Shown here piece by piece: positions 29,487 to 60,496 of a stretch of 64,000 bases of DNA. The notes beneath the pieces were generated by a model. That model did no database searches and was not told the DNA's origin. It saw only the letters and a list, made by a program, of their open reading frames with translations. Origin of the DNA: a virus; IMG/VR virus record IMGVR_UViG_3300009365_003824, positions 41,942 to 105,941 of that record. One strand, 5' to 3'. Both the position numbers and the translations under genes were made by a program. Numbering within the stretch: the first letter of the stretch is position 1; each line of letters begins with the position of its first letter.

Positions 29487-30758
29487 ACTATTAATATAAT
29501 TAACAATACCTATAGTGAACTAAAGAAATATTATGACGAAGTTTTAAATGTAGACAAATCTACTTATCAGACTTCCAATGATGAAAACACGCCTATTGGT
29601 TGCGTTGAAGATATTTTATCTAAGATACCACCAAAGTTTTGGATGCGAAAAAATTTGAGAATTTTAGATCCTTGTTGTGGTAATGGAAATTTTCCATTAG
29701 TCGTATGGAATAAACTTCGTCCCCATCATGCTGAAGAAGATATATTTAACACTCTTGTCTTTAGAGACATGAATGAGATACGATTAAGAAATGTTCAAAA
29801 TATCTTTCGAGGCAATTTTGAATTAGATGTTGCACAAGAGGATTTTTTTGAAGCTGAAAATGCAGCTTATGATTTGATTTGTTACAATCCCCCATATGCT
29901 AAAATATTAGAGAATGGAAAAAGAGCAGCTAAAAACCACACTCTTGTGAGAGATTTTACACAGAAAGCACTTAAACTTCTTGCACATAATGGTTATTTAG
30001 CTTTCATTATCCCCGATAATTGGATGTCTCTAGCCGATAGAAACATAATTGTAAAAGAAGTGACAGATCAACAAATAATATGGCTGAACATACATGGAGC
30101 TAAAAAGTGGTTTCCTAAAGTTGGCAGTTCATTTACATGGTTGGTTTTGAAAAAAATCTCACCAGATACGGCAAAGCAACCCTTTGTGGTAGAATGTACG
30201 CTTAGGGGTAAAAAATACACATCTACTTTGGACTCTCAGCAAAGAGATTTTATTCCACTTCTTTATACAAAGGAAGTGCAATCTATCCTGTCTAAAACCA
30301 TAGAGGCAGATAATGAGAAGTTTAAAATACAAACCTCCAGCGATCTTCACAAATACACTAAAGCAAATTTAATTTCAAAAGAGCGCGATGAAAAACACCC
30401 TTACAGACTAATTCACACCCCCAGACAAACAGTGTGGGCTAGTCGGCCTCATAAATTTCAACAGGGTCATAAGGTTTTCATTAGTACTACAGACAAATAT
30501 AAAGTCTTCATAGATGCTGATTGTGGGATGACACAATCAATTGCTTTTATTTTATGTCAAGATAAAGCAGTTGCTCAACAAATAAAAAAACAACTAGATC
30601 ACCCTCTTTATCGTTTTTTAAATAACATATGCCGATGGGGTAACTTCAACAACATTAGAATATTACAAAAATTTCCCATACCAACAAAAGATGACGTATA
30701 TCAATCATTTAATCTTGATAATGAAGAGATTGCGTTTATAGAAAGAAACAACACATGA
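29487..30758 (+). CDS. N6-adenine DNA methyltransferase (gamma class); start codon uncertain
   Basis: ILDPCCGNGNF and YNPPY motifs; frame open from 29487, first ATG at 29643. Confidence 0.85.
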   Translation, partial: TINIINNTYSELKKYYDEVLNVDKSTYQTSNDENTPIGCVEDILSKIPPKFWMRKNLRILDPCCGNGNFPLVVWNKLRPHHAEEDIFNTLVFRDMNEIRLRNVQNIFRGNFELDVAQEDFFEAENAAYDLICYNPPYAKILENGKRAAKNHTLVRDFTQKALKLLAHNGYLAFIIPDNWMSLADRNIIVKEVTDQQIIWLNIHGAKKWFPKVGSSFTWLVLKKISPDTAKQPFVVECTLRGKKYTSTLDSQQRDFIPLLYTKEVQSILSKTIEADNEKFKIQTSSDLHKYTKANLISKERDEKHPYRLIHTPRQTVWASRPHKFQQGHKVFISTTDKYKVFIDADCGMTQSIAFILCQDKAVAQQIKKQLDHPLYRFLNNICRWGNFNNIRILQKFPIPTKDDVYQSFNLDNEEIAFIERNNT

Positions 30759-40733: not shown

Positions 40734-41180
40734 TTACCCTCTTTCAGTGTTGTGTGGTGAATAAACCATTCTTCCACAACGAGAACACCTTTCAGAGCAA
40801 ATCTCGTAACCATCTCTATCCCACGCATTGCCGCACCTACAAGAGTAGTGAGTGTTTTTGTTCACATTACGCAAATCTATAAAATCATTGTCTTCTGTAA
40901 TGCGAATGACATTTTTAGGATCATCCCAGAAACCTTTTCCTTTAACATCTGGGATAGGAGGCGGTCCACTCTCTACTCCAAATTTAATGCAATTATACCA
41001 TATTCTTTCGTGAAGATAGTAAATCACTATTTTGGCAAAGAAGTCTATTCCACAAATTAAACCTCCAACCCCAAGACTGCCAGTTAATGCCCAACCTGCT
41101 ATTCCTGTAATAGTGCTGCCTATGATGCGGTAACTTATTGCTTTAGCTAGATGCCTCTTCCGGCTTATCTTTTTCTTCAT
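40734..41180 (-). CDS. DUF2061-like membrane protein with C-terminal Zn ribbon
   Basis: RHLAKAISYRIIGS...KIVIYYLHERIW; CRC...CSRC. Confidence 0.75.
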   Translation of the reverse strand: MKKKISRKRHLAKAISYRIIGSTITGIAGWALTGSLGVGGLICGIDFFAKIVIYYLHERIWYNCIKFGVESGPPPIPDVKGKGFWDDPKNVIRITEDNDFIDLRNVNKNTHYSCRCGNAWDRDGYEICSERCSRCGRMVYSPHNTERG

Positions 41181-42114
41181 CTTTTTTAACCTGTATTAAG
41201 CCATAATACTTAGTGCCCATGCGTAATAATTTTTTCCCATAACGAGTTATCAAACCCTTTTTGGGATGAAAGGTGTCAGGATCTAGAATAACAGGAGTAA
41301 AAGTTAGCGGAACATAAGGAGAATATTGGTATCCCGCCTCGTAATACCAGAGGTTATCTTCATCATCTTCTTTTTCTCTGCCCCTTAATCCTATAAGCAC
41401 AGTATCTTCGGGAAATTCCACATCAACATACAGTGGACAACCAATGTGGGATACAAAGAAAATTTCATCATCAGTTTCGGGAAATCTACCACTGTAATAT
41501 TCTGATAGCATTTTTCCTATCTTGGGAGAAGTTAAAATCCAATAATCGCTACTTAACAGTGTTTTTCTGTGGATGACATCTTTTATTTCCTTGATTCTAA
41601 AATACCAACCCTCTCCATCTAACCCAGGATCAACAAGAGCTTTAGTTCCAACATTGTTTCGTAAATCTGTTGTGATTTCACGGGTTATTTCATTTGATAT
41701 TTTGGCGGCTAGGTTTTCATCATCCCATTCTGTTTCTGTTTCTAGTCTTTTGGTCCTGGCAGCTATTTCTTCGCTATCTAAAACTAATTTAATTTCATCA
41801 CCATCTTCTTTGAATGCAAGAAAATAAACAAGTCCTGCTGGGCCTAGAAGAGTTTGAATAGAAACGAAATGCCTAGCCATGAGGTTAGAATAAATATCAA
41901 ATACCAGTTGAAGGTCAATCTTACTATGTCCAGATGAGGTTTCGTTCATCAATCGTTGGTTTTCTAATATGATCGCCAACTGTTTTGCATATTCAGAATC
42001 TACTTTCTCAAAAGGAAAATGATCCTTCCACTTCTCAAGACAAGAGGCAGCTTCTTCATCGTGCCTTTTTTTGGAAATCAAAGGGTCGAAAGGGTTTAGT
42101 TTCTTTTTGGCCAT
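41143..42114 (-). CDS. Second gp23/gp24-like capsid protein (possible vertex protein)
   Basis: Shares LENQRL, VSIQ.LLGP.GLVY, SEE.AA.T..L, RE..TDLRNN and YVPLT.TPV.LDP..F.P.KG..TRYGKKLLR with the MCP at 51617-53092. Confidence 0.85.
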   Translation of the reverse strand: MAKKKLNPFDPLISKKRHDEEAASCLEKWKDHFPFEKVDSEYAKQLAIILENQRLMNETSSGHSKIDLQLVFDIYSNLMARHFVSIQTLLGPAGLVYFLAFKEDGDEIKLVLDSEEIAARTKRLETETEWDDENLAAKISNEITREITTDLRNNVGTKALVDPGLDGEGWYFRIKEIKDVIHRKTLLSSDYWILTSPKIGKMLSEYYSGRFPETDDEIFFVSHIGCPLYVDVEFPEDTVLIGLRGREKEDDEDNLWYYEAGYQYSPYVPLTFTPVILDPDTFHPKKGLITRYGKKLLRMGTKYYGLIQVKKDEEKDKPEEASS

Positions 42115-42304
42115 GTTGTTTCTCCTTACGTTTTTTTCTCCACACGGTTATTACATAATTGCCAATAAACATGCCTGTCCAACTACCAAACAAACACCAC
42201 GGGTTTCTCTCGGCATAACTATACCAATTCACCATAACATAACCCAAGACTACCGGCTGACCACAAAGCTGTAAGTAATGGATCACATTCAATAAAATGA
42301 TGAG

Positions 42305-43075
42305 ATGCCACACCCGCAATACAACAGATGGCAAACCCCGATAACATTCTCCTCTTATAAAGAGAGAAAGTTGATCAGAAGAATTGACAAAAAATTGGAG
42401 AAGATCGCAAGGTTAGACTATTGCGCAGGCGAGGGTGAAGTGCTTAATCCATTTGACAAACATAGGTTTGCTACTCAGCCCGTATATCATACGAAAGCCC
42501 CAAAAATTAGGGCTAGAGGGCAAATTGTAGTTGCATATCGTGAAATCACTGGGCAATATTCTATCCCATGTGATCGTGGTTATTGGACACTTTGTAACAA
42601 GCAACCTAATGTGGATGGTGCCGAAATCGTACAATTGGTGAAATGTGGGTTGTTGCAAAAAAAGCAGTTTTATGGAATCGACTATGATCTGAATGATGAA
42701 GGCATCATAGAATTCAACCAACAACAACATCCTGAAGCCAATTGGTTCAAAGGCGAGTGGTTAGAAGTCATTGAAGAAAACTACGAGTTGTTCAATCCTG
42801 GTCTAATCTATTTCGATTACACTCGCACAGTTGTTACTCCTGCTTGCCACTTGTATCTAGCTCGCACGATGAATATGTGCCCCCCCAAGACAGTCGTGGC
42901 AGCTAATCTTATGTTGTCGGATGGGCACTCTCGCCGCCGATTCGACCCAGATTTATTGGTCGAAAATCTGGGAATTCATTTAAGATCCCCCAGTAATTGG
43001 GATGTGTATGACAAGTATTATTCGTATAAATCTAGTCATACAGAAATGGCTACTTACATCTTCGTGAGAAAATAA
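42305..43075 (+). CDS. Hypothetical protein, possible divergent Rossmann methyltransferase fold
   Basis: FYGID acidic strand and LIYFD strand; stop abuts helicase ATG. Confidence 0.45.
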   Translation: MPHPQYNRWQTPITFSSYKERKLIRRIDKKLEKIARLDYCAGEGEVLNPFDKHRFATQPVYHTKAPKIRARGQIVVAYREITGQYSIPCDRGYWTLCNKQPNVDGAEIVQLVKCGLLQKKQFYGIDYDLNDEGIIEFNQQQHPEANWFKGEWLEVIEENYELFNPGLIYFDYTRTVVTPACHLYLARTMNMCPPKTVVAANLMLSDGHSRRRFDPDLLVENLGIHLRSPSNWDVYDKYYSYKSSHTEMATYIFVRK

Positions 43076-44950
43076 ATGCATTTACATCCAGCTAATTTTG
43101 ACTACTACGATCCAAATTGGAAGCCCATTACGGCTAATATTGCGGTCTTAAAAGACACCGACCCCAAGGAGTTGGGATATGGTAATCGTGACTACCAAAT
43201 TAGATGCTACGAAGCGTTTCAAGGAAAAAGAAGAACGATATTTATTTCTCCGACAGGCAGTGGTAAAAGTTTAGTGCAGATTTTTAATGCTGCTAGAGAG
43301 ATTATTGAATCGGACTATGAACAAAAACAAGTGTTTATTGTCCCTCAATTGAATATTGGTGATGGTTTCACGGATTACAAACACAAAAAATTGCGGATCA
43401 ATGGTGAAATTTATGGTTGGGAGGTTACTACAAATTGTTGTTTTGACAATGAGCAGTCTGTTAAAAGAATCAGAGGTTTCCTCCTGAAGGATCATCCATG
43501 TAAATCATATCGAGCAAACAAGGTACTAGGAGGTTGCACCGCTGTAGTGAGTTATTCGGCATTGTTGGCAGCTTTTAATAGTATGACTCCTAGAGAAAAA
43601 ATGCGAGCTATTCAGAATACTTCATTTCGTCCCGATGAGGTTCATCATATCTCTGGCGTGGATGAAGGTGGTGTTGCACCAAACCGCTTAGGAGGATTTT
43701 GTAAATTCGTTTTGGACAATGACGGTTGCTTACACTTAACTACGGCGACATTCTTTCGTGGTGATCGGGGTGTAATTCTTGATGGTCATTATCTGGATGA
43801 TTTTGAGGTTTTCCGTGTCCCATTTCTTGAACACTGGGCGACGTTAAGATTAAAAGAACTTCATCAGGACTACCTTTGTTATAAAAATAGCAATGATCTT
43901 TTGAGACAAATTCTAACTGCTGTAGCGGCTGAACCAGATAAGCCACCAATCATCATCGTTCCAGCAGATGGACAAAAGTTCTTTAAACGCACAAACAAAT
44001 GGAAGTGGGTTGAAAGACTCGTGGATGGTTTGACTGAGATTTATGGAGATAGAGTTCTTGATCTTGTTACGCCTGAACGTCAACAACGAGACAAAAAACG
44101 ATTAACTGCTGATGTTCAAGATTTTTGTGCTGTTGTCACTTGTGCCATTGGAAGAGAAGGAACTGATTGGCCAGCATGTTCTCGTGTTCATAACACGGTA
44201 TTAGATGCTAATACTCTGCAACCAATTCAGAAACTCGGAAGAGCTTTGCGTCAACACGAAGAAAAAACCGATATTAAAATGTTTAATTATATTGAGCATT
44301 TTAAGAAGTGGGACGATAGCCCTGATACTGTTCGTGAAAAGCTATCAGATCGTTTCAATGCTGTTGTAATGGCCTCTATGTTGGATGATATGTTTTATCC
44401 CATCCTCATGCCAGCAATACCTCAAGATAAAAACCGCGTTTGCAATGTGACGCTTGAAGATGTGTATGGAAGCAAACGAAATGAATTAGTTGAAGATATG
44501 ATGCGACGATTACTGGCAATTCCCGCATCAAATAGAAACGCTGAAGCCATCAATGAACTTGTTGATGAGATCATTGAAGAATATGAAGACGACATGTTGG
44601 AGGATGTTTCACATGACACCCTCAGAGAACGATTGCGAAAAGAAATTCTCCGTCGCCAAAACCCTAGTAGTCCTAATCTTCGTATGGATGGGATGATTGT
44701 TGATTTTGTTCGTGAGCATGGTTGGGATAAGGTTATACGAAAATATATCGCCAAAAAATCCCCCTTTGTAGGCGTTGCAGCAACTAAAGACCTTGAAAAA
44801 TTGCAAAAGTTTTTAAACAAAGGCGATTGGCTAGAGAATGTTGAACAAATTAAAAAGATAGGACTTGAAAACATACAAAAAGGAAGTCGGCTTTATCATT
44901 TCCTTTTAAAACAACGCCGAGATTTCAGAAAGGCAACGCACAGTGCTTAA
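43076..44950 (+). CDS. Superfamily 2 helicase/ATPase (type III Res-like)
   Basis: RDYQ, SPTGSGKS, DEVHH, TAT, REGTDW, QKLGRALR. Confidence 0.9.
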   Translation: MHLHPANFDYYDPNWKPITANIAVLKDTDPKELGYGNRDYQIRCYEAFQGKRRTIFISPTGSGKSLVQIFNAAREIIESDYEQKQVFIVPQLNIGDGFTDYKHKKLRINGEIYGWEVTTNCCFDNEQSVKRIRGFLLKDHPCKSYRANKVLGGCTAVVSYSALLAAFNSMTPREKMRAIQNTSFRPDEVHHISGVDEGGVAPNRLGGFCKFVLDNDGCLHLTTATFFRGDRGVILDGHYLDDFEVFRVPFLEHWATLRLKELHQDYLCYKNSNDLLRQILTAVAAEPDKPPIIIVPADGQKFFKRTNKWKWVERLVDGLTEIYGDRVLDLVTPERQQRDKKRLTADVQDFCAVVTCAIGREGTDWPACSRVHNTVLDANTLQPIQKLGRALRQHEEKTDIKMFNYIEHFKKWDDSPDTVREKLSDRFNAVVMASMLDDMFYPILMPAIPQDKNRVCNVTLEDVYGSKRNELVEDMMRRLLAIPASNRNAEAINELVDEIIEEYEDDMLEDVSHDTLRERLRKEILRRQNPSSPNLRMDGMIVDFVREHGWDKVIRKYIAKKSPFVGVAATKDLEKLQKFLNKGDWLENVEQIKKIGLENIQKGSRLYHFLLKQRRDFRKATHSA

Positions 44951-45902
44951 AAAATGGCAAATATCGGCACTAGAAAGTATTGAAGGATGGGATGAATTCC
45001 TTGCTAATGCTAATAATGCTGCTGAAAAGAAGCAACTATTATTGGAAATGGCTAGGAATGGAGAGCCAAGGCCACGATCACAAAAACATTATCTTGCGGG
45101 AGCACTAAATTCTTACATCGGTAAGTCAAATAATAGTTACGACCCAGAGTTTGATAAAAAGATTAGAAAATTAGCACCACACTGGTTCGTTAGTACTGCT
45201 GCTAAAAATAAAAAACTGCTGCTAGAAATGGCGAGGAATGGAAAACCACGACCAGTTCAAACAACACAATTGGGATCAGCATTAAACTCTTATACTAAGG
45301 GTTGTTGTGATCTTGTTTTCGACAAAAAAATTAGAGAACTGGCTCCACATTGGTTTGATACTACTGCTAGGAACAAAGAAGCCCTTCTCGAAATGGCAAG
45401 AAGTGGAGAACCACGACCAAATTGTAAAAAGAATCCATTGGGAAAAAGACTTGTGCGTTATATCGGTAAGTCAAGTGGTTCTTATGATCCTGCTTTTGAC
45501 AAAGAAATTAGAAAACTAGCCCCACATTGGTTTGTTGACACTGCTGCTGAAAAAAAACAACTATTGTTGGAAATGGCCAGGAATGGAGAACCACGACCAA
45601 CAAAAAACCCGCTAAAATCAGCATTAAATAATTATCTTTGCGAGGCAAGCGGCTGTTGCGACCCTGTTTTCGACAAAAAAATTAGAAAACTAGCCCCACA
45701 TTGGTTTGTTGATACTGCTGCTGAAAATAAGAAACTATTGTTAGAGATGGCACGCAATGGTGAACCCAGGCCAAATAGCAAAAATGGATCTCTGGGGAAT
45801 TGTCTTGTGCGATATACGAATAATACTAGCTCCTATGATAAAGAGTTTGACAAAAAAATTAGAAAACTAGCTCCGCACTGGTTCAGGAAGAATCATGCTT
45901 AA
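44943..45902 (+). CDS. Repeat protein A (5 helicase-associated-like repeats)
   Basis: 5 copies of LLEMARNGEPRP-variable-FDKKIRKLAPHWF after MLKKWQISALESIEGWDEFL. Confidence 0.8.
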   Translation: MLKKWQISALESIEGWDEFLANANNAAEKKQLLLEMARNGEPRPRSQKHYLAGALNSYIGKSNNSYDPEFDKKIRKLAPHWFVSTAAKNKKLLLEMARNGKPRPVQTTQLGSALNSYTKGCCDLVFDKKIRELAPHWFDTTARNKEALLEMARSGEPRPNCKKNPLGKRLVRYIGKSSGSYDPAFDKEIRKLAPHWFVDTAAEKKQLLLEMARNGEPRPTKNPLKSALNNYLCEASGCCDPVFDKKIRKLAPHWFVDTAAENKKLLLEMARNGEPRPNSKNGSLGNCLVRYTNNTSSYDKEFDKKIRKLAPHWFRKNHA

Positions 45903-46945
45903 AAAATGGCAAATATCGGCACTAGAAAGCATTGAAGGATGGGATGAATTCCTCAATGAGGAATCGTCTTCTGCCAAAAATAAAAAACTGTTGTTGGAAA
46001 TGGCAAGAAATGGAGAGCCAAGACCAAAAAAAAATAAACACCCATTGGGATCTGTACTGACTGCTTATACAGGAAAAATGAGAGATTGTTACGATCCTGT
46101 ATTTGACAAACAAATTAGAGAATTAGCTCCACATTGGTTCATTGCTGTTGTAGAAGAAAATAAAAGACTATTATTGGAAATGGCAAAGAAGGGAAAACCA
46201 AGACCAAAACAAGGCAAACATCCGTTAGGAGGCAAATTGAGTGATTACACCAATGGAATCCATCGTGGTTCTAAATTTGACAAGCAAATTAGAAGATTGG
46301 CACCACATTGGTTTGTCGAACAAACTATCGAACAGAAAAAACAACAACTCCTTGAAATGGCAAGAAATGGCGAGCCAAGACCATCTCAAAGGAAATATCC
46401 TTCACTGGGGTCTGCATTAAGTCGTTATACTGACAAAAACAAATCTTATGATCCTGACTTTGATAGAGAAATTAGAAAATTAGCACCGCATTGGTTTGTT
46501 GATGCTGCTGAAAATAAAAAATTGCTTCTTGAAATGGCTAGGAACGGAGAGCCAAGACCATCTAAGGAAATCCCATTAGGAAGAATAATAAATTATTACT
46601 TTAGGTGCGATCCTGATTTTTACAAGAAGATCAAAGAATTAGCTCCACATTGGTTCGATAGGAAAAGTCATAAGCAATCTAAAATTGCCAAGCAGAAAAA
46701 ACAACAACTTCTTGAAATGGCTCGCAATGGAGAGCCACGACCAAAAAGAAAAAAACACAAATTAGGAATATCATTGGGTTGTTATACCAGTAAAAACAAT
46801 AGTTCTTATGATCCTGCCTTCGACAAGCAGATTAGAAAACTAGCTCCGCACTGGTTCAGGAAGAATCATGCTTAAAAAATGGCAAATATCGGCACTAGAA
46901 AGTATTGAAGGATGGGATGAATTCCTTAATGAAGAATCTTCTTCT
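44944..46945 (+). repeat. Three near-identical gene-junction repeats
   Basis: tgcttaaaaaatggcaaatatcggcactagaaag(t/c)attgaaggatgggatgaattcct from 44944, 45896 and 46869; the last two also share upstream attagaaaactagctccgcactggttcaggaagaatca. Confidence 0.92.
45895..46875 (+). CDS. Repeat protein B (5 repeats)
   Basis: Same leader peptide and repeat scaffold. Confidence 0.8.
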   Translation: MLKKWQISALESIEGWDEFLNEESSSAKNKKLLLEMARNGEPRPKKNKHPLGSVLTAYTGKMRDCYDPVFDKQIRELAPHWFIAVVEENKRLLLEMAKKGKPRPKQGKHPLGGKLSDYTNGIHRGSKFDKQIRRLAPHWFVEQTIEQKKQQLLEMARNGEPRPSQRKYPSLGSALSRYTDKNKSYDPDFDREIRKLAPHWFVDAAENKKLLLEMARNGEPRPSKEIPLGRIINYYFRCDPDFYKKIKELAPHWFDRKSHKQSKIAKQKKQQLLEMARNGEPRPKRKKHKLGISLGCYTSKNNSSYDPAFDKQIRKLAPHWFRKNHA

Positions 46946-47308
46946 GACAAAAAGAAAAAACTGCTTCTTGAAATGGCACGGAATGGAGAACCACGACCAA
47001 AGAGTAAAAAACATCCGGGTGTAGCATTGAGTAATTACATCAGTAAGTCAAGTAATGCTTACGATTCAGACTTCGATAAGAAAATTAGAAAACTGGCACC
47101 ACACTGGTTTGTTGATGCTGTTGCTGAAAAGAAAAAACTGCTTCTTGAAATGGCAAAGAATGGTGAACCACGACCGAAGTGCGTCTTCGGCCAGAAAAGC
47201 AATCCATTGGGAAGGGCGTTAAGGGATTACATCAGTAAGTCAAGTGGCTCTTACGATCCTACTTTCGACAAGCAGATTAGAAAACTAGCACCGCACTGGT
47301 TCAATTAG
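46868..47308 (+). CDS. Repeat protein C (2 repeats)
   Basis: Same leader peptide and repeat scaffold. Confidence 0.8.
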   Translation: MLKKWQISALESIEGWDEFLNEESSSDKKKKLLLEMARNGEPRPKSKKHPGVALSNYISKSSNAYDSDFDKKIRKLAPHWFVDAVAEKKKLLLEMAKNGEPRPKCVFGQKSNPLGRALRDYISKSSGSYDPTFDKQIRKLAPHWFN

Positions 47309-47896
47309 TGCCTGAGAATCCTTAGAGAGCTTTTTTAAAATTTTCCACTTGGTATCGGTTGCACACTCAATAAGCTGAATAGGCTTCCATATCATGTGAT
47401 GTGGGCTTTTTAAATAACGCTGCTCAGCCTCTCCCTCTGTCATGTAGTCCAGACATGCCTCTTGAGCTAATAGCCTCTTAGTGTGCTTCTTAGCGTTTTT
47501 AATTAAATCTATGGCTTGAGGCATAGTCAAATGCTGAATTACATGCACACAACAAGCTAAATCAAACTGTCCTATGTCCCAATTATCCTCGACCAAATGG
47601 AATTTCACATTATCTGAGGCGTAATTTTTAGAGGCGTAATCCACCCTAGCAGCAGTGATGTCAATTCCAACGTAGGATTTAAAAGGCAAGATGGCTGAAT
47701 ATCTGCCATATCCACACCCTATTTCCAGAATCCTTTTCCCTGCTGTCTCTTTTTTAAGCCATTCCACAGCGTCAGAATTGACCCCATCAAGGTGAGCATC
47801 ATTATTAAAGAGGCGAACCACCCCATTCAGAGCTTTTTCAGTTCTTGCATTGAAGTCTTCAACTATGTCGTAGTCTCGACCTGTCCAAATACTCAT
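47285..47896 (-). CDS. Class I SAM-dependent methyltransferase
   Basis: ILEIGCGYGR, YVGIDI, FDL...VIQH. Confidence 0.85.
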   Translation of the reverse strand: MSIWTGRDYDIVEDFNARTEKALNGVVRLFNNDAHLDGVNSDAVEWLKKETAGKRILEIGCGYGRYSAILPFKSYVGIDITAARVDYASKNYASDNVKFHLVEDNWDIGQFDLACCVHVIQHLTMPQAIDLIKNAKKHTKRLLAQEACLDYMTEGEAEQRYLKSPHHMIWKPIQLIECATDTKWKILKKLSKDSQALIEPVRC

Positions 47897-48689: not shown

Positions 48690-48908
48690 TTATTTCTTCA
48701 ACAACCTCAATAGTCGCTTTAACAACCTGTTGTTTTCTTTCAATAATTTGTTGTGTTCTTCTAGTAGCTCTAATAATTCTGATTTAAGATTTGGCATTTT
48801 AAATTCAGTTTCGGTTGGCTTTGCTGATTCCATTTTTGTAGATTCTAAGAGTTCTAAAGGTGATTTTAATTGCTTCAATGGCGATTGTGTTATATTTGTT
48901 ATATTCAT
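48690..48908 (-). CDS. Small coiled-coil protein
   Basis: Leucine-zipper-like C-terminus. Confidence 0.5.
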   Translation of the reverse strand: MNITNITQSPLKQLKSPLELLESTKMESAKPTETEFKMPNLKSELLELLEEHNKLLKENNRLLKRLLRLLKK

Positions 48909-50368
48909 GCAGTATATATCAAACCACACAAAACTTCTGACTCCGTAATTTCTAATTTATCACGACATGCCTGCCGTATTGCTTTATACTGATTTACTTC
49001 TTTTGGTGGTTCTGAGAAAGATGGAGTTTGTCCACTGAAAAAACTGTCAAGAATTTCAGGGATGCGTTCCTGATCCCAAAAAGGAATATAAAGGATAGGA
49101 ATATTACGTTGTTTTAGATATTTAAGTTTGCGGTGGTCACGTTTGATATATGAATAAAGGTTTTTGTACTTGGTGTTGTGCTTGCCACCAAAATAAACAG
49201 GAATGTAATGCGGTTCTCCTTGATACTCAATCAATCCTTTTTCGGTAGCAAAATCAAATCGTAAATTTCCAATTGAAGATTTTTTAAATCTGAATTGTGG
49301 TTTGAATATGATTTGGTTTTGTTCAAGGTATTCATAAATTATTTTTTCATTTCGAGATGTTTTACATTTATGACACCTCTTACCTTGTTTAAAATTACTA
49401 AAACGAATCTCTGATTTATTGCCGCACTTACAAATATAAGGCATAGATGTATTATTGCCAATATACTCCGTAGCAAGTAGTTTACACCCCCCATCAGCAA
49501 AATATTGTTTGACATATTCAAAGGAATGTTTCAATGATTTTGCTATTTTATTATTACCACAATTCCTGCACCTATGACCTACCTTAAAACTACCAAAACT
49601 AATTTTTGATTCATTACCACATTCACAAATATAAGGCATTGGAGCATCTTTGCCAGTATATTCTGTGGCAAGTAATTTACATCCATGATCCTCAAAATAT
49701 TGTTTGACACACTCAAAGGAATGTTTATTTAATTGGCTTAGCCTCCTATTGCTGCATTTTTTACACCTTTGACCTTGTTGCAAATTATAGAATCTAATTT
49801 TTGATTCATTACCACATTCACAAATATAAGGCATGGAAGTACCACTGTTTTTATATTCCGTAGCAAGAAGTGTACATCCACGATCTTCAAAGTATTTTTT
49901 TACATATTCAAGGGAGTGTTTTTGTGATTTGACCATCTTTTTAGTGCCGCACTCTCTGCACCTATGACCTGCCTTAAAATTACTAAAACGAATTTTTGAT
50001 TCATTACCACACTCACAAATATAAGGCATTGGTGTACTCGTGTCGATATATTCGTGTTTCTCAACAAGAAGTGTACACCCTTGGTTTATGAAATGTTGTC
50101 TCATTTCTTCAAAAGATGTTCTGCGTGCAAGACCACTCTTTTCAATTCCACAGAGTTTACACCTTTTCCCATGTTGAAAATTGTTGAAATTGATTTCTGA
50201 TTTATTGCCACATTCACAAATGTAAGGCATTGAAACATTAGCATTAATATATTCCACAGCAAGAAGTTCACATCCATGATTCTCAAAATATTTTTTTACA
50301 TATTCAAAAGTTAATTTTTTCAAAATCCACACTTGCCTCACTATATAAATTATGGTAAAATACGCCAA
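48905..50368 (-). CDS. Putative homing endonuclease: 5 Zn-ribbon repeats plus Vsr/DUF559-like nuclease
   Basis: 5 copies of YF..xGC.LL..EY......MPYIC.CGN......GxRCxxC; C-terminal RFDF...IEYQGEPHY...RD..K. Confidence 0.75.
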   Translation of the reverse strand: MAYFTIIYIVRQVWILKKLTFEYVKKYFENHGCELLAVEYINANVSMPYICECGNKSEINFNNFQHGKRCKLCGIEKSGLARRTSFEEMRQHFINQGCTLLVEKHEYIDTSTPMPYICECGNESKIRFSNFKAGHRCRECGTKKMVKSQKHSLEYVKKYFEDRGCTLLATEYKNSGTSMPYICECGNESKIRFYNLQQGQRCKKCSNRRLSQLNKHSFECVKQYFEDHGCKLLATEYTGKDAPMPYICECGNESKISFGSFKVGHRCRNCGNNKIAKSLKHSFEYVKQYFADGGCKLLATEYIGNNTSMPYICKCGNKSEIRFSNFKQGKRCHKCKTSRNEKIIYEYLEQNQIIFKPQFRFKKSSIGNLRFDFATEKGLIEYQGEPHYIPVYFGGKHNTKYKNLYSYIKRDHRKLKYLKQRNIPILYIPFWDQERIPEILDSFFSGQTPSFSEPPKEVNQYKAIRQACRDKLEITESEVLCGLIYTA

Positions 50369-50382
50369 AAGGAGAAATTACC

Positions 50383-51543
50383 ATGTATTTACAAGAACTG
50401 AACGGTATTCTACCCGCTCAAAAAGTAAAAATCAAGTATGACTGCAATGGTGGATTTGAACGTTGTGGTCAAGAGTGGGAGCTTAAATTAAAGGATGCTC
50501 AAAAGAATTTTAAGAAGAATGAAGGAAAACACATTTGTCGAAAGTGTACGCTACGACAAAAAAATCCGATGTTCGACAAAAAGAACGTTGAAAAGATCAA
50601 AAAGACTAATTTAGAAAGGTATGGAACTGAACACCCGCTAAATTCTGAAGAACACATCCAAGAACGCCGGGAACAACTCAAAGATCCAGAATTCAAGAAG
50701 AAATGGTTGGCAAAACACCGGCAAACATCACTTGAGAAGTATGGTGTCGAACACCATATGAAGAGTGAAGTCTCAAAAGAAAATCAAAGAAAATCAATGA
50801 GAGAGAAGTATGGTGTAGATTACCCATATCAATCCGAAGAGATTATGGCCAAAATGAAAAAACGTAATTTGGAAAAGTATGGAGTAGAAAATGCAGCATC
50901 TCGACCAGAAGTTCAAATTAAAATGGCAAAGACGAGATTAGAAAAATATGGAGTAGAGCATTATAATCAATTACCAGAAATGAGAGAATATTTAAGAGAA
51001 CACTGTACAGAATGGCTGGCTGAAAGTTATAAAAATCCGTGGGCCAAAGGAATTACGAGGCCAGAGGAATGGAATCAGAAACAGAGGGAAACGGTTGCTA
51101 AACTTATTACCGAAGGCAATTGGCCAGGAGGATTTGTGTCTAATTGTCGAGGAAGATATAAAGCAAAAAAATGTAAAAAAGAAAACCCTCGGTTTCTATC
51201 TGGTTTAGAATTGCAAATGCACTTTTTTTTAGACAATCATCCAGATGTAGAATGGTATAATTATGAGTCTTTTGCTATTCCCTATTTAGATCAAGATGGC
51301 AAACAGCATCTATACTTTCCTGACTTTTTAGTTAAATATAAAAATGATCCATTAGAACACATTATTGAGACTAAAACATGGAAAGATAAGGATTCAATTA
51401 CTGTGAAGTTAAAACATGACGCAGCAGTTGATTATGCAAATGAACGGAGCATGACATATACAATTTTATTTGATGAAGATGTGCAAGAATTGGGAATAGA
51501 TTTAGAAAGTGTTAAAAATTTACCAGTAGTTGAATTATATTAA
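50383..51543 (+). CDS. Putative homing endonuclease: EKYGVE repeats plus TnsA-N-like nuclease
   Basis: 5 copies of (L/R)E(K/R)YG(V/T)(E/D); SGLE...YE...IPY...YFPDFLV...IIETK. Confidence 0.75.
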   Translation: MYLQELNGILPAQKVKIKYDCNGGFERCGQEWELKLKDAQKNFKKNEGKHICRKCTLRQKNPMFDKKNVEKIKKTNLERYGTEHPLNSEEHIQERREQLKDPEFKKKWLAKHRQTSLEKYGVEHHMKSEVSKENQRKSMREKYGVDYPYQSEEIMAKMKKRNLEKYGVENAASRPEVQIKMAKTRLEKYGVEHYNQLPEMREYLREHCTEWLAESYKNPWAKGITRPEEWNQKQRETVAKLITEGNWPGGFVSNCRGRYKAKKCKKENPRFLSGLELQMHFFLDNHPDVEWYNYESFAIPYLDQDGKQHLYFPDFLVKYKNDPLEHIIETKTWKDKDSITVKLKHDAAVDYANERSMTYTILFDEDVQELGIDLESVKNLPVVELY

Positions 51544-51616: not shown

Positions 51617-53092
51617 TCAAATCACAAAATTGGCAATCGAGAGGCGTGCGTAGAATTTAGCACCTTCTCTCAAAAGTTTTTTACCATATCTCGTTAAAAT
51701 ACCTTTTCTTGGGCAAAAATTCTCTGGGTCCAGAACCACTGGGGTCTGTGTCAGGGGGACGTATGGTAGGTAAAAATACCCAGCATCCATATAACTGTCG
51801 CCCTTGTAACCCATTAAAATCTGCCCTTGCGGGAAGAGCGGATCTTTGTATAATCTCCAGCGAGAATTTACTGTTCCGACGTATTGAATACCCAAGGAAC
51901 TTGTGAATGTCTCGGAAGGAGCGGGTGCGAAACCAGCAGTTGCGGTTTCAAAAATGGAGGCTACTTCAGGAGAAGTTACCAACCAGTTGCAACCACCACG
52001 CAGAGTTTTACGGTGAACAACATTTGAAACTTCTACGACCTTGACATACAAGGATTCGTATTTTTCTTTAATTGTGTCACCAAGCGCGGTATTGAAATCC
52101 CAGGAGGAAATTGTGCCAGCGTTGTTTCTCAGGTCAGTGAGAACTTCACGGTCGATTTCCAAGTTAATTTCCTGAGCCAAGATAGCAGTTAATTCTGCTT
52201 CGGCGTCAAGATTGTGCTGAGATCGCAGGTCTTGCTGAGCTTCGTAGCTCCAAACGGCCTTCAATTTACGAGTCTTGGCTGCAACTTCTTCGGATTCGAT
52301 AACCATGTTGATCTCAGGAAGATCAGGGTTACATTCCATGTTGTACTCATAATTTACAAGCACATAGTTTTCGCCAGGACCAGCCCCGCCACCACCAGTG
52401 TCAGACCACTGGACAACAACTTCACCCGTTGTAAGGTCCATTGAGGAACCTGTAGCAACTGGGGTATAGTCGGGGGAGCCAATTGTTGTAAATGTAAACG
52501 CACCATTTTCACCAACACCAAAAGTAGCGACTGCGGTTGTGCCATCAAAGACGGTACCTGTCATGCTACCAGCGAGGATTGGGGTGTGTTCAAGCGGAGC
52601 ATAAACACTAACCATATCCAAGCCATCATCCTGAGAGCTAGTCTCGTTCTGGATGAACTGGTGGGAGTAGTAAATATCCAAGTTTGCATCACCAGATGCC
52701 AACTGTTGGAGGGTGTTTACATCGTCATCTGGATAGCCAGCGTTATTATCAGCACCACGGGTGGCACCTTTATTGCTGGAGTATCTAAATCTCAGGTAGT
52801 AAACCAAACCAGTTGGGCCAAGTAGCGGTTGAACGGAAACAATTTTATTTGCGATCAACTGCGGATAAATTCTACGGACCAACGGAATAGAAATTCTTTT
52901 GAACTGGGCGATGTCGCCAGTATCAGTAGAGACTTCGTTGAACAATCTCTGGTTTTCCAGAAGAACAGCAGTGCAAGAGCGGGTATAGTCATCATCTAAA
53001 TCGCCTTTGACGCTCTTCAGCAAACCTGTTTTGTTCCAGAAGCCTTCGCATTCTTTTGCTTCGTTAAGAAGCCTTGAATTGCCACTAAACAT
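51617..53092 (-). CDS. Major capsid protein, T4 gp23-like
   Basis: VSVQPLLGPTGLVYYLR, KTRKLKAVWSYEAQQDLRSQHNLDAEAELT.ILAQEINLEIDRE, YLPYVPL, TRYG. Confidence 0.97.
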   Translation of the reverse strand: MFSGNSRLLNEAKECEGFWNKTGLLKSVKGDLDDDYTRSCTAVLLENQRLFNEVSTDTGDIAQFKRISIPLVRRIYPQLIANKIVSVQPLLGPTGLVYYLRFRYSSNKGATRGADNNAGYPDDDVNTLQQLASGDANLDIYYSHQFIQNETSSQDDGLDMVSVYAPLEHTPILAGSMTGTVFDGTTAVATFGVGENGAFTFTTIGSPDYTPVATGSSMDLTTGEVVVQWSDTGGGGAGPGENYVLVNYEYNMECNPDLPEINMVIESEEVAAKTRKLKAVWSYEAQQDLRSQHNLDAEAELTAILAQEINLEIDREVLTDLRNNAGTISSWDFNTALGDTIKEKYESLYVKVVEVSNVVHRKTLRGGCNWLVTSPEVASIFETATAGFAPAPSETFTSSLGIQYVGTVNSRWRLYKDPLFPQGQILMGYKGDSYMDAGYFYLPYVPLTQTPVVLDPENFCPRKGILTRYGKKLLREGAKFYARLSIANFVI

Positions 53093-57077: not shown

Positions 57078-57962
57078 TCAGAAGGGCACTTCGTCGTGGT
57101 CTTCTTGCGCACGTCTTGCTGCCGAAGCGGCCTTTTTGGCTTTGCGCCAAGGTCGCTTTTTAGTTGGCATTTTTCCGCCTACAAGCGTGGGTTCTGGTGG
57201 CTCATAATCTCCCCATCTATCTGTTTCTGAATCCAACATTGCTTGATAATCTGAATATGGGTTACTGCCTTCCCAAACAGGATCAATTAAAACCAAATCC
57301 CCATTATTTCTTTTCATAATATTTTCAGGATGCATGTCTAAAGCACACTCTTTTACACCTTGACACACTAAAGCAAGCCCCTCATAAAGAGTTTTTATCT
57401 TGGGGTTTCTCTTGAATACATCAAATAAATCCTGATACCTTTTTACCTTAACAGTTTGTGGCTGTGCCCCATTTCTTCTTTCTTTAAAACTGGGACGAAT
57501 CACCTGTTCAACTTCAGCATCTCCCACGCCTCTTTTTACAGCGTCAACATATGAAAGACCCTCTGGATACCAGTCTATGATGATTTTTGCCAATTGTGCA
57601 TCAACTGGTTGTAGCAACTCTATTCTGGCGATGTAAGTTGTTGCTTCCTCTGGTGTTCGTTTATAAAATGGAACAACTTTTTGAGGCGGGCCAAAGAGTT
57701 TCGGGAATGCAGAGTGAGATGTCTTGTAAGCAAATCTTGCAAACCTTAAATAGTTCACATCATGGAACATCTTTAATACATACGGCCATCTAGGGTGGCT
57801 AAAAACAGAGGCGTGTCTACCACCGCCAGCGTATTCTCCACCACTTGCCTCAAATTCCTTCATTAATTGATCCCAGGTTTTGTTGCGATGTTCAGGATTT
57901 AACAAAAAATCTGAAACCGTATCAAAATCCTCTGTTATGAAGAATTCGGCAAATCCCTGCAT
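57078..57962 (-). CDS. Ser/Thr protein kinase, T7 gp0.7-like
   Basis: GGGRHASVFSHP...YVLK, IELL, LDMHPENIM...LVLIDP; begins MQGFAEFFITE. Confidence 0.8.
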   Translation of the reverse strand: MQGFAEFFITEDFDTVSDFLLNPEHRNKTWDQLMKEFEASGGEYAGGGRHASVFSHPRWPYVLKMFHDVNYLRFARFAYKTSHSAFPKLFGPPQKVVPFYKRTPEEATTYIARIELLQPVDAQLAKIIIDWYPEGLSYVDAVKRGVGDAEVEQVIRPSFKERRNGAQPQTVKVKRYQDLFDVFKRNPKIKTLYEGLALVCQGVKECALDMHPENIMKRNNGDLVLIDPVWEGSNPYSDYQAMLDSETDRWGDYEPPEPTLVGGKMPTKKRPWRKAKKAASAARRAQEDHDEVPF

Positions 57963-60496
57963 TACATTTCACCCCAGTCAATGTCCTCCACGTCTTGCTC
58001 TCGACCGTAATCCAAGATTTCAAGATCATACTTCTTAATATCATCTTCACCCGCGTCAGCAATTGCTGAAGCAGCAGCACCGCCTTGTGGTTGTTGTGGT
58101 TGTGCTTCGCCTTGCGGTGGGCCACCGCCGCCTTCAGGAGCCGGTAGTCCAGGTGGTTGCTGTTGTTGTTGTTCGTCACCCAACATTGGATTAGGACCAC
58201 CTTCTTTTGCTCCAACTTCTTGTTCGGGAGGCTGTTGTGGTGCAACACCTAGAAGAATTGGATTTTGTGCCAAAACTTGAATCTTTAAATCCTCAAGTTT
58301 CTGAATTTTCAGACGAGCCAATTTCTCTTCAGCTTCTTCTGGCGTCATCTTCATCCAATCCACCATAATGTCGTAATCTGAAAAGAGTTGCGCCCCTTTT
58401 AAGTTGGTGGCATTTGCAATCCTATTAGTCACCACTTCGGCACGACTTAACTCTTTCCAATCAGAGGGCGGGGTTAAATTAATTAGCAAGTCTTCATAAG
58501 TCTCTTCGGGGAAGCCTCGCAGTTTAAGGTGTCTATCACAGATTTCCCAGATACCATCTTCAACAGATTGTTGCAGTCTTTCGATGTGTCGAGCAAATTT
58601 AACATCTTGTGCAGACAGGGTGATTCTGGTTGCGTTTGGGTCTTCATTGCTGAAGTAGTTTTTGGGGAAGTTCATGGCAGTAAACAGTTTGTTGCGGAAG
58701 TAAACTGCGTCGTCAATTTCACCCAAGTTCTGAGCACCCGGCAAGGTCTCAATTCTAGTATTGGATTGCGCACGAATGGGAATCCAGTAATCTTCATCTG
58801 CTGCTGGTGGGTGCCATCTTTCCTCTACTTGAGATGCCCCTGGCAGACCTGTCCTAGTGGATGCTACCTTTTTCTTTCTAAATTGGTCTTTAAGTCTCTC
58901 AATGAACGCTTCAGCTTTGAACGGAGGCAAAGAACCCACATCGACATAAAACACACGTCGCTCAGGAGCGCGTGTAAGTCGATAGACCACCATAGCATCT
59001 TCCATTAACCTCAATTGATGGGCAGGACCACGGGCTGCTTCGACCAAACTAACTCCATACGGGTAATAGGTTTTTCTATCGTCCCCAATTCTGACATGGA
59101 CTATTTGTTCGGGAGCAAAACGAATGGCGGTAGATTGCCTTAATTCTTGCTCAGTAGCCTGCGTTACAGGCGAGCGCGTGAGAGATTCTGTATCAGGACC
59201 ATCTTTAGACTGTTGAAATTCAATGAGGCGTCCTTTTGTCGTTTCAATACGAAATACAGACTCCGGTGGAAGCATGTTTACTTTTAATACTCCGCTTTTA
59301 GGGTCTTCCATATTCGTACAGAGTTCGCCAAACCAATCGCCAAAGATATAGAGGTTTTTAATCCAGTTCCACATACGCCGATCAAGATTAATCATTTTGC
59401 GATGGAACAGAAGAAACTCTAGCTCTTTCAACACTTCTTTGTTTGAGACTCGAATCTCACATACGTGGTCATCGTCATTCTTTTGGCAGTTGTGGAAAAC
59501 AACCGTCTCACCGCAGAAGTTTTCATGGTCTTTTACCGACAAGTCGTAGACCTTCATTTCTTTCCACGGCATCACGCCTACAACACGACGATTGCCACCA
59601 TTGGCCGTTTTTTTAGCCAGTTGATGAATTTCCTTGTAAGAAAGACCATACTTGTGCATCCAAGATTCCAAAGTCTTCCATTGGTGTCCCAGTTCTTTTG
59701 ATATTTGCTGAGTTGTTAGTCCACCACTAATAAGACGAGTGATTTTATTTACGACTTGTTCTTTGTCGTCTACCTTACCAGTTCGCCACTCATTGATGAA
59801 TTGTCGTTCATGTTTCCACCCATCAGTTTTTGTGTGGACTCTGGGGAAATGACCAGTTTTTGTCTTAGTAAGATTGTGATTAGCTGGCACCCTGTAAAAT
59901 GGCATAAGTTCATAGCCATGTCTTATGTCGCCCGCTTCAATCCATTCCCCATCAGCCGTTAATACCCTGTGGTCAAGGGTGGATATGAAATATGTGCCAT
60001 CGTCTAATAAAATCTTAACCGTTTGGTCAGTTTTCACATAACGAGGATCATAAGCCCAACCCAAAGTGTAATCATTTTTCTCGAAATCCCAACAATAAAC
60101 CAAGAACTCTTCGGTCTTGTTTTCTGCCAGCCATTCGATACTTTTAAGTCCATCGAAAAGAGTATTGATAAGAGTATCACCAGCTAAACAGGACTCATCA
60201 GCAAAGACGGTCATTGCCGTCTCAATTTCTGCTACGTTCCTTAGCCTTTCATATTCTTTATATCTACTTTGTCGATTGGTGACGGAAGACAAGTCAATGA
60301 AGTCATTGGTGTCACGCAGTCGAATCATACCTCGACCGCCACCCCAGAAACTTCCGTCTTGTCGTATGTCCGGTATCGCGTCAGGTTGACTGATACCTGC
60401 ACCTGTTAAAGGAGCGTCGTCATCTTTTTGCGATAAAGGATCTTTGGTCCCCAACGCATACTGCCACAGTTTAAAATAATCCCACCAGTTAGCCAT
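57962..60496 (-). CDS. Portal protein, T4 gp20-like, intein-containing
   Basis: QLRLMEDAMVVYRLTRAPERRVFYVDVG, EDYWIP, IETLPGAQNLGEIDD..YF..KL. Confidence 0.95.
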   Translation of the reverse strand: MANWWDYFKLWQYALGTKDPLSQKDDDAPLTGAGISQPDAIPDIRQDGSFWGGGRGMIRLRDTNDFIDLSSVTNRQSRYKEYERLRNVAEIETAMTVFADESCLAGDTLINTLFDGLKSIEWLAENKTEEFLVYCWDFEKNDYTLGWAYDPRYVKTDQTVKILLDDGTYFISTLDHRVLTADGEWIEAGDIRHGYELMPFYRVPANHNLTKTKTGHFPRVHTKTDGWKHERQFINEWRTGKVDDKEQVVNKITRLISGGLTTQQISKELGHQWKTLESWMHKYGLSYKEIHQLAKKTANGGNRRVVGVMPWKEMKVYDLSVKDHENFCGETVVFHNCQKNDDDHVCEIRVSNKEVLKELEFLLFHRKMINLDRRMWNWIKNLYIFGDWFGELCTNMEDPKSGVLKVNMLPPESVFRIETTKGRLIEFQQSKDGPDTESLTRSPVTQATEQELRQSTAIRFAPEQIVHVRIGDDRKTYYPYGVSLVEAARGPAHQLRLMEDAMVVYRLTRAPERRVFYVDVGSLPPFKAEAFIERLKDQFRKKKVASTRTGLPGASQVEERWHPPAADEDYWIPIRAQSNTRIETLPGAQNLGEIDDAVYFRNKLFTAMNFPKNYFSNEDPNATRITLSAQDVKFARHIERLQQSVEDGIWEICDRHLKLRGFPEETYEDLLINLTPPSDWKELSRAEVVTNRIANATNLKGAQLFSDYDIMVDWMKMTPEEAEEKLARLKIQKLEDLKIQVLAQNPILLGVAPQQPPEQEVGAKEGGPNPMLGDEQQQQQPPGLPAPEGGGGPPQGEAQPQQPQGGAAASAIADAGEDDIKKYDLEILDYGREQDVEDIDWGEM
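59489..60190 (-). mobile_element. Intein (234 aa) in portal
   Basis: Starts CLAGDT; block B TLDHRVL; ends VYDLSV...NF....VVFHN followed by Cys. Confidence 0.92.

Follow-up and report, generated by a model that had tools for sequence, protein, structure and literature searches.

We examined a five-gene operon (g1 to g5, all on the + strand) within a 64-kb window of viral DNA, the whole stretch analyzed, which corresponds to bases 41942-105941 of the 105.9-kb IMG/VR record IMGVR_UViG_3300009365_003824; gene and feature coordinates are positions within this window. The record has an estimated completeness of 21%, and the stretch was present in two marine metagenome DNA runs, both of one study, with no RNA run among the listed sequencing runs that contained it. 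The window proteins include a T4-type terminase, an intein-bearing gp20-type portal protein, and two members of the gp23 family, one of them the major capsid protein (Pfam and other family collections), and on this basis the source is a fragment of a large, marine, T4-like tailed phage. The operon is predicted to encode a protein with a class-I (Rossmann) methyltransferase fold (g1, open reading frame (ORF) 42305-43075), a nuclease-free superfamily 2 (SF2) DExH/ResIII-type helicase or translocase of 624 aa (g2, 43076-44950), and three proteins in which a short leader precedes repeats resembling the helicase-associated (HA) domain: g3 (44943-45902; five repeats, 319 aa, isoelectric point (pI) 9.75), g4 (45895-46875; five repeats, 326 aa, pI 9.97), and g5 (46868-47308; two repeats, 146 aa, pI 9.66). 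The original prediction, made from the sequence alone, had described five tightly coupled genes at this location, and this arrangement was confirmed. The g1/g2 junction is TAAATG, the g2/g3 junction is GTGCTTAA, and the g3/g4 and g4/g5 junctions are both ATGCTTAA, the last three being 8-nt overlaps of the form RTGCTTAA. The ORF assigned to g1 was likewise found to be real, but translation probably starts at GTG 42440 (42440-43075), giving a product of about 211 aa instead of the 256 aa of the longest ORF, because all 39 homologues are ∼211 aa long and begin with MLNPFDKH and because GAGG lies upstream of this codon. Residues 1-50 of the long ORF had predicted local distance difference test (pLDDT) values below 60 in an AlphaFold2 (AF2) model. 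With the start at 42440, ∼325 nt (42115-42439) are non-coding or carry only a poorly supported N-terminal extension.

The proteins encoded by g3, g4, and g5 hold five, five, and two copies, respectively, of a unit of 48-58 aa. The copies were located at 45027-45188, 45207-45356, 45372-45533, 45552-45707, and 45726-45884 in g3; at 45979-46140, 46159-46314, 46336-46497, 46513-46656, and 46696-46857 in g4; and at 46952-47110 and 47129-47302 in g5 (all + strand). The anchor motifs LLEMA and APHWF each occur in the same 5+5+2 distribution, and a DNA repeat search recovered 12 in-register copies of the segment coding for FDKKIRKLAPHWF (family D4); Tandem Repeats Finder detected no array because the copies are just 60-85% identical in DNA. 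The 12 repeats with a fixed scaffold and a hypervariable middle that had been predicted were therefore borne out, but their length, given earlier as about 55-60 aa, was not, the core unit being 48-58 aa. Alignment of the 12 repeats revealed 19 invariant columns (K2, L5, L6, E7, M8, A9, G12, P14, R15, P16, Y30, F42, I46, L49, A50, P51, H52, W53, and F54), a variable middle, and indels in both loops. A wider set of 410 repeats from approximately 40 related loci shares a conserved core (K2, L5, L6, M8, A9, G12, R15, P16, L23, G24, L27, Y30, Y38, D39, F42, I46, P51, W53, and F54) and is highly variable at some 18 positions (17-22, 25, 26, 28, 29, 32-37, 40, and 41). The AF2 model of g5 (mean pLDDT 92.4) contains three helices per repeat. 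On the short middle helix, core residues L23, L27, and Y30 are interspersed with variable residues 25, 26, 28, and 29, which, as mapped by helical periodicity, would therefore form the exposed face of helix 2. The array proteins are basic (pI 9.7-10.0). Among the 12 copies, synonymous sites are saturated (pS ∼0.7), and with this saturation the ratio of nonsynonymous to synonymous substitution (dN/dS) was 0.05 for the scaffold and 0.23 for the variable part; the copies are old, and strong purifying selection acts on their scaffold. Cysteine is unusually frequent at variable positions 28, 29, 32, and 37 (50 of 380 residues at position 28 and 95 of 376 at position 37), examples from the window repeats being GCCD and CEASGCCDP.

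The three array proteins begin with the same 20-residue leader, (M)LKKWQISALESIEGWDEFL, encoded on the + strand at 44943-45002 in g3, 45895-45954 in g4, and 46868-46927 in g5. Its protein sequence is identical in all three, its DNA is 95-98% identical, and the first 60 nt of the genes differ at one to three positions only, which fits the proposal that the repeat proteins are interchangeable subunits. The similarity extends across the gene boundaries: the 225-nt g3/g4 junction (45819-46043, + strand), which comprises the end of the last repeat, the 8-nt overlap, and the leader, is 85% identical to the g4/g5 junction (46792-47016, + strand; family D8), far above the level in the repeat bodies. 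Given that the repeat bodies, unlike the junctions, are saturated at synonymous sites, either recombination homogenizes the junction DNA or its nucleotide sequence is itself under constraint, coupled re-initiation being one conceivable reason. Recombination at the junctions would add, remove, or swap whole array genes, consistent with the variable number of such genes across loci, and the presence of a start codon within each overlap fits termination-reinitiation. We also weighed programmed frameshifting at the junctions and discarded it, as the g3 frame is +1 from that of g2 and GCT-TAA-A provides no cognate +1 slip. A promoter and terminator scan gave fewer promoter-like sites than were found in shuffled sequences and nothing usable, and the stretch at 42115-42439 yielded no convincing promoter.

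The assignment of g2 as an SF2 helicase, also part of the original prediction, was supported by matches to ResIII (2e-7) and to the phrog_16 DNA helicase family (3e-16), with DEAD and Helicase_C below their cut-offs, and by the motifs PTGSGKS, DEVHH, TAT, and QKLGRALR, which are invariant or nearly so in a 15-sequence alignment. Weak family ties connect the protein to a dnd restriction enzyme (3.7e-5) and to PbeA, that is, to ResIII-type restriction motors, and its matches among PDB sequences include Dicer-related helicases. Its relatives fall into 673 representative clusters. No nuclease family (PD-(D/E)xK, Mrr, and HNH types included) was found in g1-g5 by Pfam, PHROGs, PADLOC, or NCBIfam, in agreement with the earlier remark that the operon lacks a nuclease motif. 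Judged by these matches, g2 is an intact, nuclease-free SF2 DExH/ResIII-type helicase or translocase.

The proposed methyltransferase fold of g1 was confirmed at the level of its predicted structure. The AF2 model (mean pLDDT 85) has the class-I topology beta1-alphaA-beta2-...-beta6-beta7, including the beta6-beta7 hairpin, and Foldseek matched it to more than 300 S-adenosylmethionine (SAM) methyltransferases in the PDB at E ≤ 1e-3. Superposition with VIA-align gave Z scores of 13-14.7 over ∼165 residues with a root-mean-square deviation (rmsd) of ∼3 Å to 3vse, 2as0, and Trm5. The best neighbors are rRNA and tRNA methyltransferases (3vse, 2as0/PH1915, Trm5, RlmO, RsmD, and TrmN), in a flat ranking in which 981 of 1000 chains reached Z ≥ 8. 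Asp126 (in GID), at the end of the strand formed by residues 122-126 (beta2), is invariant in 26 sequences and provides the acidic residue expected to contact the SAM ribose; Asp171 after beta4 is also invariant, and loop residues Cys97, Gln100, and Glu107 are conserved. No methyltransferase family was matched by g1 in Pfam (N6_Mtase and MethyltransfD12-type families included), PHROG, PADLOC, or NCBIfam, and in Pfam, PHROG, and NCBIfam it matched no family of any kind.

Pattern scans derived from the repeat alignment yielded eight loci from viral sequences and 38 from metagenomes (designated by L numbers below), with some duplication among them, and linkage was counted in the 18 distinct loci of at least 10 kb. 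An SF2 helicase lies beside the arrays or is fused to them in 14 of the 18. Thirteen encode a g2-type helicase, in each case together with g1 or, for two of them, with a g1-like domain; in the fourteenth helicase locus, L034, the repeats are fused to a RadD-like helicase. The parts are shuffled into at least six gene orders (g1-g2-arrays, g1-arrays-g2, array-g1-g2-arrays, g2-g1-arrays, g2-array-g1-array, and fused g2 plus arrays with g1 on either side), and the number of array genes per locus ranges from one to seven or more, each with 1-10 repeats, as would be expected if homologous helicases are accompanied by variable numbers of repeat genes. Helicase and repeats are joined in a single polypeptide in L015, L016, L030, L035, L036, and L045, and tandem repeats fused to SF2 helicases were recorded in these six loci and in L011, L014, L034, and L039. 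In L011 and L014 one chain of 1314-1355 aa runs from the helicase through eight repeats to a C-terminal domain of ∼210 aa. This domain aligned with g1 in hhalign (E 4.7e-4, probability 32%, 165 co-linear columns) using a two-sequence tail profile, with co-linear motifs (F/Y)WTL, VD.D, P.VISYD.T, and NFM; the comparison of g1 with the single L011 tail showed no relation. The survey supports the view that the helicase, g1, and the arrays form a real, conserved module, and because they recur together in 13 of the 18 loci, in shuffled order and in some cases fused, the helicase, the repeats, and the methyltransferase-fold protein almost certainly work together. One g2 homologue, P0254 (1281 aa), carries five PF18780 homing-endonuclease-associated repeats (3.9e-61) at the position of the array, so that the small helical repeat arrays joined to the g2 motor family are of three or more unrelated kinds.

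The distribution of related records was also recorded. Complete genomes of 364 and 572 kb are among them. The operon had no DNA match among GenBank phages, g4 had no tblastn match there, and relatives of the repeats were absent from 185,579 prokaryote species genomes by pattern scan.

The repeats had been suggested to be HA domains (PF03457), a family whose members are frequent on bacterial, giant-virus, phage, and some eukaryotic helicases. Their consensus has the HA layout, with L..mA..G in helix 1, a proline loop, LG.aL..Y in helix 2, and F...i..L.P.WF in helix 3. The nearest named ESM-Atlas clusters of the repeat are all PF03457 (0.85-0.89), and an Atlas structure search gave a template modeling (TM) score of 0.53 to an actinobacterial ResIII+HA helicase cluster. 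In a BFVD search the first two hits were family members, and ranks 3-10 (probability 0.5-0.97, E 0.14-1) were mostly giant-virus SF2 helicases together with a phage protein annotated as "Helicase associated domain". The solved HA domain 2KTA, a nuclear magnetic resonance (NMR) structure from Bacteroides vulgatus BVU_0683, ranked 16th against the repeat model (Z 3.7, rmsd 4.5 Å, 65 residues), tied with unrelated bundles. A Foldseek search of the PDB with the g5 model returned nothing at E ≤ 0.001, the best rows having E values of ∼2. We conclude from the pattern, the context, and the weak structural matches that the repeat is HA-like and placed where HA repeats sit on helicases, and that it represents a family undetected by Pfam, not a member of PF03457.

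The boundaries between motor and arrays appear to cut through such a module. The C-terminal tail of g2 (44822-44950, + strand; residues 583-624) can be read as HA helices 1 and 2. All of the split helicases at 56-74% identity keep this tail (W..kIG..N..k.s.L..F..QR), even where the helicase gene is located downstream of the arrays, and in the fused relatives L035 and L045 the helicase runs straight into the repeats with neither tail nor leader. The corresponding leader, L..i.GW.eF, starts at least 13 array proteins in seven loci (L008, L010, L012, L017, L022, L023, and L024). Other array proteins start with a longer piece that matches textbook HA helices 2 and 3. The leaders of homologues P0003 and P0013 pass the PF03457 cut-off (29.3 and 31.6 bits, respectively, versus 28.4) at profile positions 25-63; a word-index search with the P0013 leader returned P0013 itself only, and P0013 had no match among PDB sequences. 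The cut falls elsewhere in L029 and L032, whose helicases stop after HA helix 1 and whose arrays open with helices 2-3, and in L026, where the gene boundary interrupts an ordinary repeat behind its helix 1. The recurrence of the same principle at different cut points argues against an accidental split. The g2 tail alone had no match in Pfam, and when it was artificially concatenated with the leader the only family match was to PF03457, across the junction (E 0.014, 16.1 bits). Complex prediction for g2 residues 556-624 with g5 lent weak support, with a score of 0.55, compared with 0.01 for the best of three controls; the runs agreed in at least 94% of contacts, and the partner pLDDT was at least 79. 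Of 80 solved complexes, 58 passed the threshold applied to this score, as did 2 of 110 mismatched pairs. We regard docking by complementation of HA fragments as having a little over even odds.

Gene boundaries inside modules are also what would be left if a restriction-modification (R-M)-like or fused helicase-array gene had lost its nuclease and been frameshifted apart, the leader and tail then being leftovers. The fused forms in relatives and the placement of a ResIII-type motor beside a methyltransferase fold fit such decay. Against it, all ORFs are intact and have start codons, Shine-Dalgarno-like sites, and identical 8-nt coupling overlaps, the leader protein is identical in three paralogues and conserved in at least seven loci, the scaffold dN/dS is 0.05, and the tail is retained even with the helicase gene downstream of the arrays. 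We give the decayed remnant only the slightest chance of being correct.

Boundaries that fall within repeats occur elsewhere in the family as well. Some array proteins begin in mid-repeat, lacking helix 1 (M..ESEYLPVKKP...; L011 12329-17367, L014 8681-10171, and L041 3123-4451), and some neighboring small proteins carry an extra orphan helix 1, as in L041 2482-3135, where RRLLELAESGAEKP is followed directly by KKRRMLELA. Together the mid-repeat starts and orphan helices give sequence-level hints that arrays may also dock onto one another.

With modest confidence, on balance, we favor a three-part module of large phages in which the detached arrays serve as the nucleic-acid-binding tails of the motor and are re-attached through a split HA domain. 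Its parts would be a nuclease-free SF2 (ResIII/DExH) motor, an orphan class-I methyltransferase-fold protein, and basic HA-like arrays, the last being covalent tails of the motor in some phages and detached into three paralogous genes in the window phage. In this scheme the helicase would stop after HA helices 1-2 and every array protein would begin with the missing helix 3, so that one of three alternative arrays, with five, five, or two modules, would complete the HA domain and ride non-covalently on the motor. Holding the nucleic-acid backbone would fall to the conserved basic scaffold, and tuning what is bound to the variable helix-2 face and flanking loops; the methyltransferase-fold partner would act on or beside the bound substrate. 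Because the module resembles a nuclease-stripped Type ISP or Type III enzyme with arrays replacing the target-recognition domain, processive marking or remodeling is a reasonable guess, by analogy, for what it may do, and cutting is unlikely.

The substrate of the module is more likely to be DNA, judging by the ResIII-type helicase, the title of the 2KTA paper (reference 64 in PMC12191111), which states DNA binding by the domain, published fusions of HA to TniQ target selectors and to nucleases, and the homing-endonuclease repeats of P0254. Were RNA the target, the DExH protein would remodel RNA, the arrays would bind it much as PPR or PUF proteins do, and g1 would methylate phage or host transcripts, tRNA, or rRNA. 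Such a module could be suspected from the rRNA and tRNA methyltransferases that are the best structural neighbors of g1 (Z 13-14.7), and from the many RNA helicases among the DExH SF2 enzymes, including the Dicer-related helicases among the PDB sequence matches. Basic helical repeat arrays are, moreover, a common solution for binding RNA. The methyltransferase ranking is flat, however; the helicase family matches (ResIII, dnd restriction enzyme, and PbeA) are all on the DNA side, the HA NMR paper reports DNA binding in its title, and a g2 homologue has the DNA-binding repeats of homing endonucleases in place of the array. We consider an RNA-directed module rather unlikely.

Helical repeat proteins often bind proteins, and the arrays could instead be protein-binding scaffolds or decoys, for example sequestering host factors, with a regulatory link to the helicase. 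A variable surface would be consistent with an arms race against host proteins, but the arrays are strongly basic and are fused directly to two different helicase clades, and the associations of the related HA domain are with enzymes that act on DNA. This explanation appears very improbable to us.

The original prediction further held that the DNA specificity of the arrays is set by a TALE-like code. That claim was not supported by the repeats themselves because their length varies (48-58 aa, with loop indels), ∼18 positions vary, and the four-residue helix-2 faces are near the shuffled expectation and draw on no small residue alphabet (347 distinct faces among 390 repeats versus 373 ± 4 on column shuffling). 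Arrays acting as programmable, sequence-specific DNA readers, of a TALE-like or more plausibly a zinc-finger-like kind, would guide the motor and a DNA methyltransferase to chosen sites for anti-defense, competitor exclusion, or host DNA remodeling. Such readers would account for the fixed scaffold with a variable exposed helix-2 face, for array numbers and lengths that differ across loci, and for homogenized junction DNA that would permit cassette exchange, and the fusion of HA to TniQ target selectors points the same way. They would also account for the full turnover of variable residues from one related phage to another at a helicase identity of 56-74%: at these residues, close relatives are no more alike than distant phages (best matches ≤ 0.56, mean ∼0.2, compared with ∼0.7 for the scaffold). 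The indels in both loops, the variation at ∼18 positions and not two, the near-random diversity of the faces, the missing sign of positive selection (variable dN/dS 0.23, with saturated sites), and the lack of DNA amino-methyltransferase motifs in g1 all argue to the contrary, and we think programmable DNA readers distinctly unlikely. A broader version, in which the arrays read DNA or RNA sequence by zinc-finger-like logic, the split HA domain acts as a plug and socket that re-targets a common core, and the homogenized junctions drive cassette exchange, is in our judgment simply unlikely.

Several observations weigh against the module with detached, re-docking tails that we favor. None of the 12 repeats gave an HMMER match to PF03457 at E ≤ 10, so that the gathering score of 28.4 bits was not reached, none of 110 diverse repeats matched at E ≤ 1, and a six-frame PF03457 search of the window's record and five related records found nothing. 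Repeat profiles compared with PDB sequences returned chance rows only, 2KTA not being found, and the repeat has weak structural matches that rank level with helical bundles unrelated to it. The tail-leader chimera, at 16.1 bits, remains below the Pfam cut-off. The g2/g5 complex score lies in a weak band, at or below 0.60, that contains just 7 of the 80 solved complexes and both passing mismatches, and in which passes are wrong more often than right unless the interaction is likely beforehand; because an HA structure has been solved, part of the score may be memory. The three arrays could also act without the motor. In g1, the nearest structural neighbors are RNA, not DNA, methyltransferases, the loop after beta1 reads TLCNKQPNVDGAE and has no GxG or glycine-rich motif I, and FDYT follows beta4 where motif IV, (D/N)PP(Y/F), would be expected. 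Finally, the variable residues are not conserved between closely related phages, no dN/dS above 1 was found for them given saturated synonymous sites, and they could be mere unconstrained surface.

The operon is flanked by a gp23-like gene (41143-42114, - strand) and a convergent methyltransferase gene (47285-47896, - strand). The former encodes a shorter gp23-family paralogue (2e-21), probably a gp24-like vertex protein; the full major capsid protein is encoded at 51617-53092 (- strand; Gp23 1e-82). The module adjoins a gp23 paralogue in the window and likewise in L008, L010, and L011. The convergent gene, whose 24-nt overlap with g5 lies at the 3' end of the latter, encodes a canonical class-I methyltransferase (Methyltransf_12/25/11 ∼1e-10; PADLOC mad2 2e-8) and is not kept beside the module in related loci. 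Two homing-endonuclease-like genes separate the operon from the gp23 capsid gene: one at 48905-50368 (- strand) with at least six YICECGN..K zinc-ribbon repeats and a match to phrog_559 HNH endonuclease (8.6e-73), and another at 50383-51543 (+ strand) with DUF7487 and a TnsA-like endonuclease N domain. These two genes identify the structural-module stretch around the operon as an insertion hot spot. The portal gp20 gene (57962-60496, - strand) carries the intein (Portal_T4 8e-74, residues 337-725; Intein_splicing 5e-10, residues 155-336). Elsewhere, the window encodes an Eco57I/N6_Mtase-type DNA methyltransferase (29643-30758, + strand), a subtilase (17050-18117, - strand), and a family-2 glycosyltransferase (20074-21996, - strand).

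The novelty claimed for the system stood in part: a helicase with C-terminal HA repeats is already a Pfam architecture, whereas literature searches found nothing on the phage module, its obligatory methyltransferase-fold partner, or the split domain. For HA repeats themselves, the literature searched offered one NMR structure and no function. The main value of the operon is that the function of HA repeats becomes directly testable, as it provides small separable proteins (146-326 aa), a defined partner motor, and a predicted docking piece of 20 residues that can be deleted. Should both binding and docking prove true, the module would exemplify natural subunit exchange in which fragments complement each other to complete a three-helix domain, would give the HA family its first function, and would amount to a nuclease-free machine in three parts, widespread in large phages, that does something other than classical restriction. 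Biotechnological interest in the arrays would follow if specificity is encoded by the variable face.

Among known systems, SF2 helicases with C-terminal tandem HA domains share with the module an SF2 motor that precedes tandem three-helix units of ∼55-65 aa, the pattern L..f...G..P....LG.a...(Y/R)......f...i..L.p.W(F), and a canonical HA piece at the helicase/array boundary, and the Atlas and BFVD neighbors of the repeats are such HA helicases. The module differs from them in that its repeats are missed by the PF03457 hidden Markov model, its arrays are detached into one to seven or more genes, motor and array each appear to contribute part of one HA domain, there is an obligatory methyltransferase-fold partner, and it was found here in large phages. 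The PF18780 HNH_repeat helicases and homing endonucleases likewise contain small helical modules that are thought to bind DNA, in the same position in P0254, but the window repeats are a different family and the operon lacks an endonuclease. TALE, zinc-finger, MOON, and pTERF proteins (PMC11417379) have tandem modules with a conserved scaffold and variable mid positions in common with the arrays; unlike them, the arrays have three helices per variable-length module of 48-58 aa and no two-residue code, are coupled to a motor, and bind DNA only putatively.

Type ISP and Type III R-M enzymes (LlaGI, LlaBIII, 5FFJ, and 4XQK; Res/Mod) also combine a ResIII-type SF2 translocase, a methyltransferase fold, and a target-binding part, and in L011 and L014 all three R-M-like parts are in one chain. 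In contrast to these enzymes, the module has no nuclease domain, g1 lacks (D/N)PP(Y/F) and GxGxG, and repeat arrays take the place of the target-recognition domain; sequence similarity to LlaGI/LlaBIII was found only for the L034 helicase (E ∼2e-4). An analogous module in a cultivable system is offered by the isolated Tunturiibacter phage Tunturi_5 (PP885688, 309 kb), whose gp100 helicase shares 29.7% identity with g2 across 89% of its length and is followed by two coupled genes, gp99 and gp98, deposited as "DNA helicase" (L054, PP885688.1, 5926-9709). The one upstream protein compared, gp102, is not a g1 homologue (hhalign, no relation). The gp99 protein has an HA-like leader and helical repeats of ∼55 aa (W..AE.LA.ENGG.LP...FAHI) that belong to another sequence family, with no relation to the window repeat profile in hhalign.

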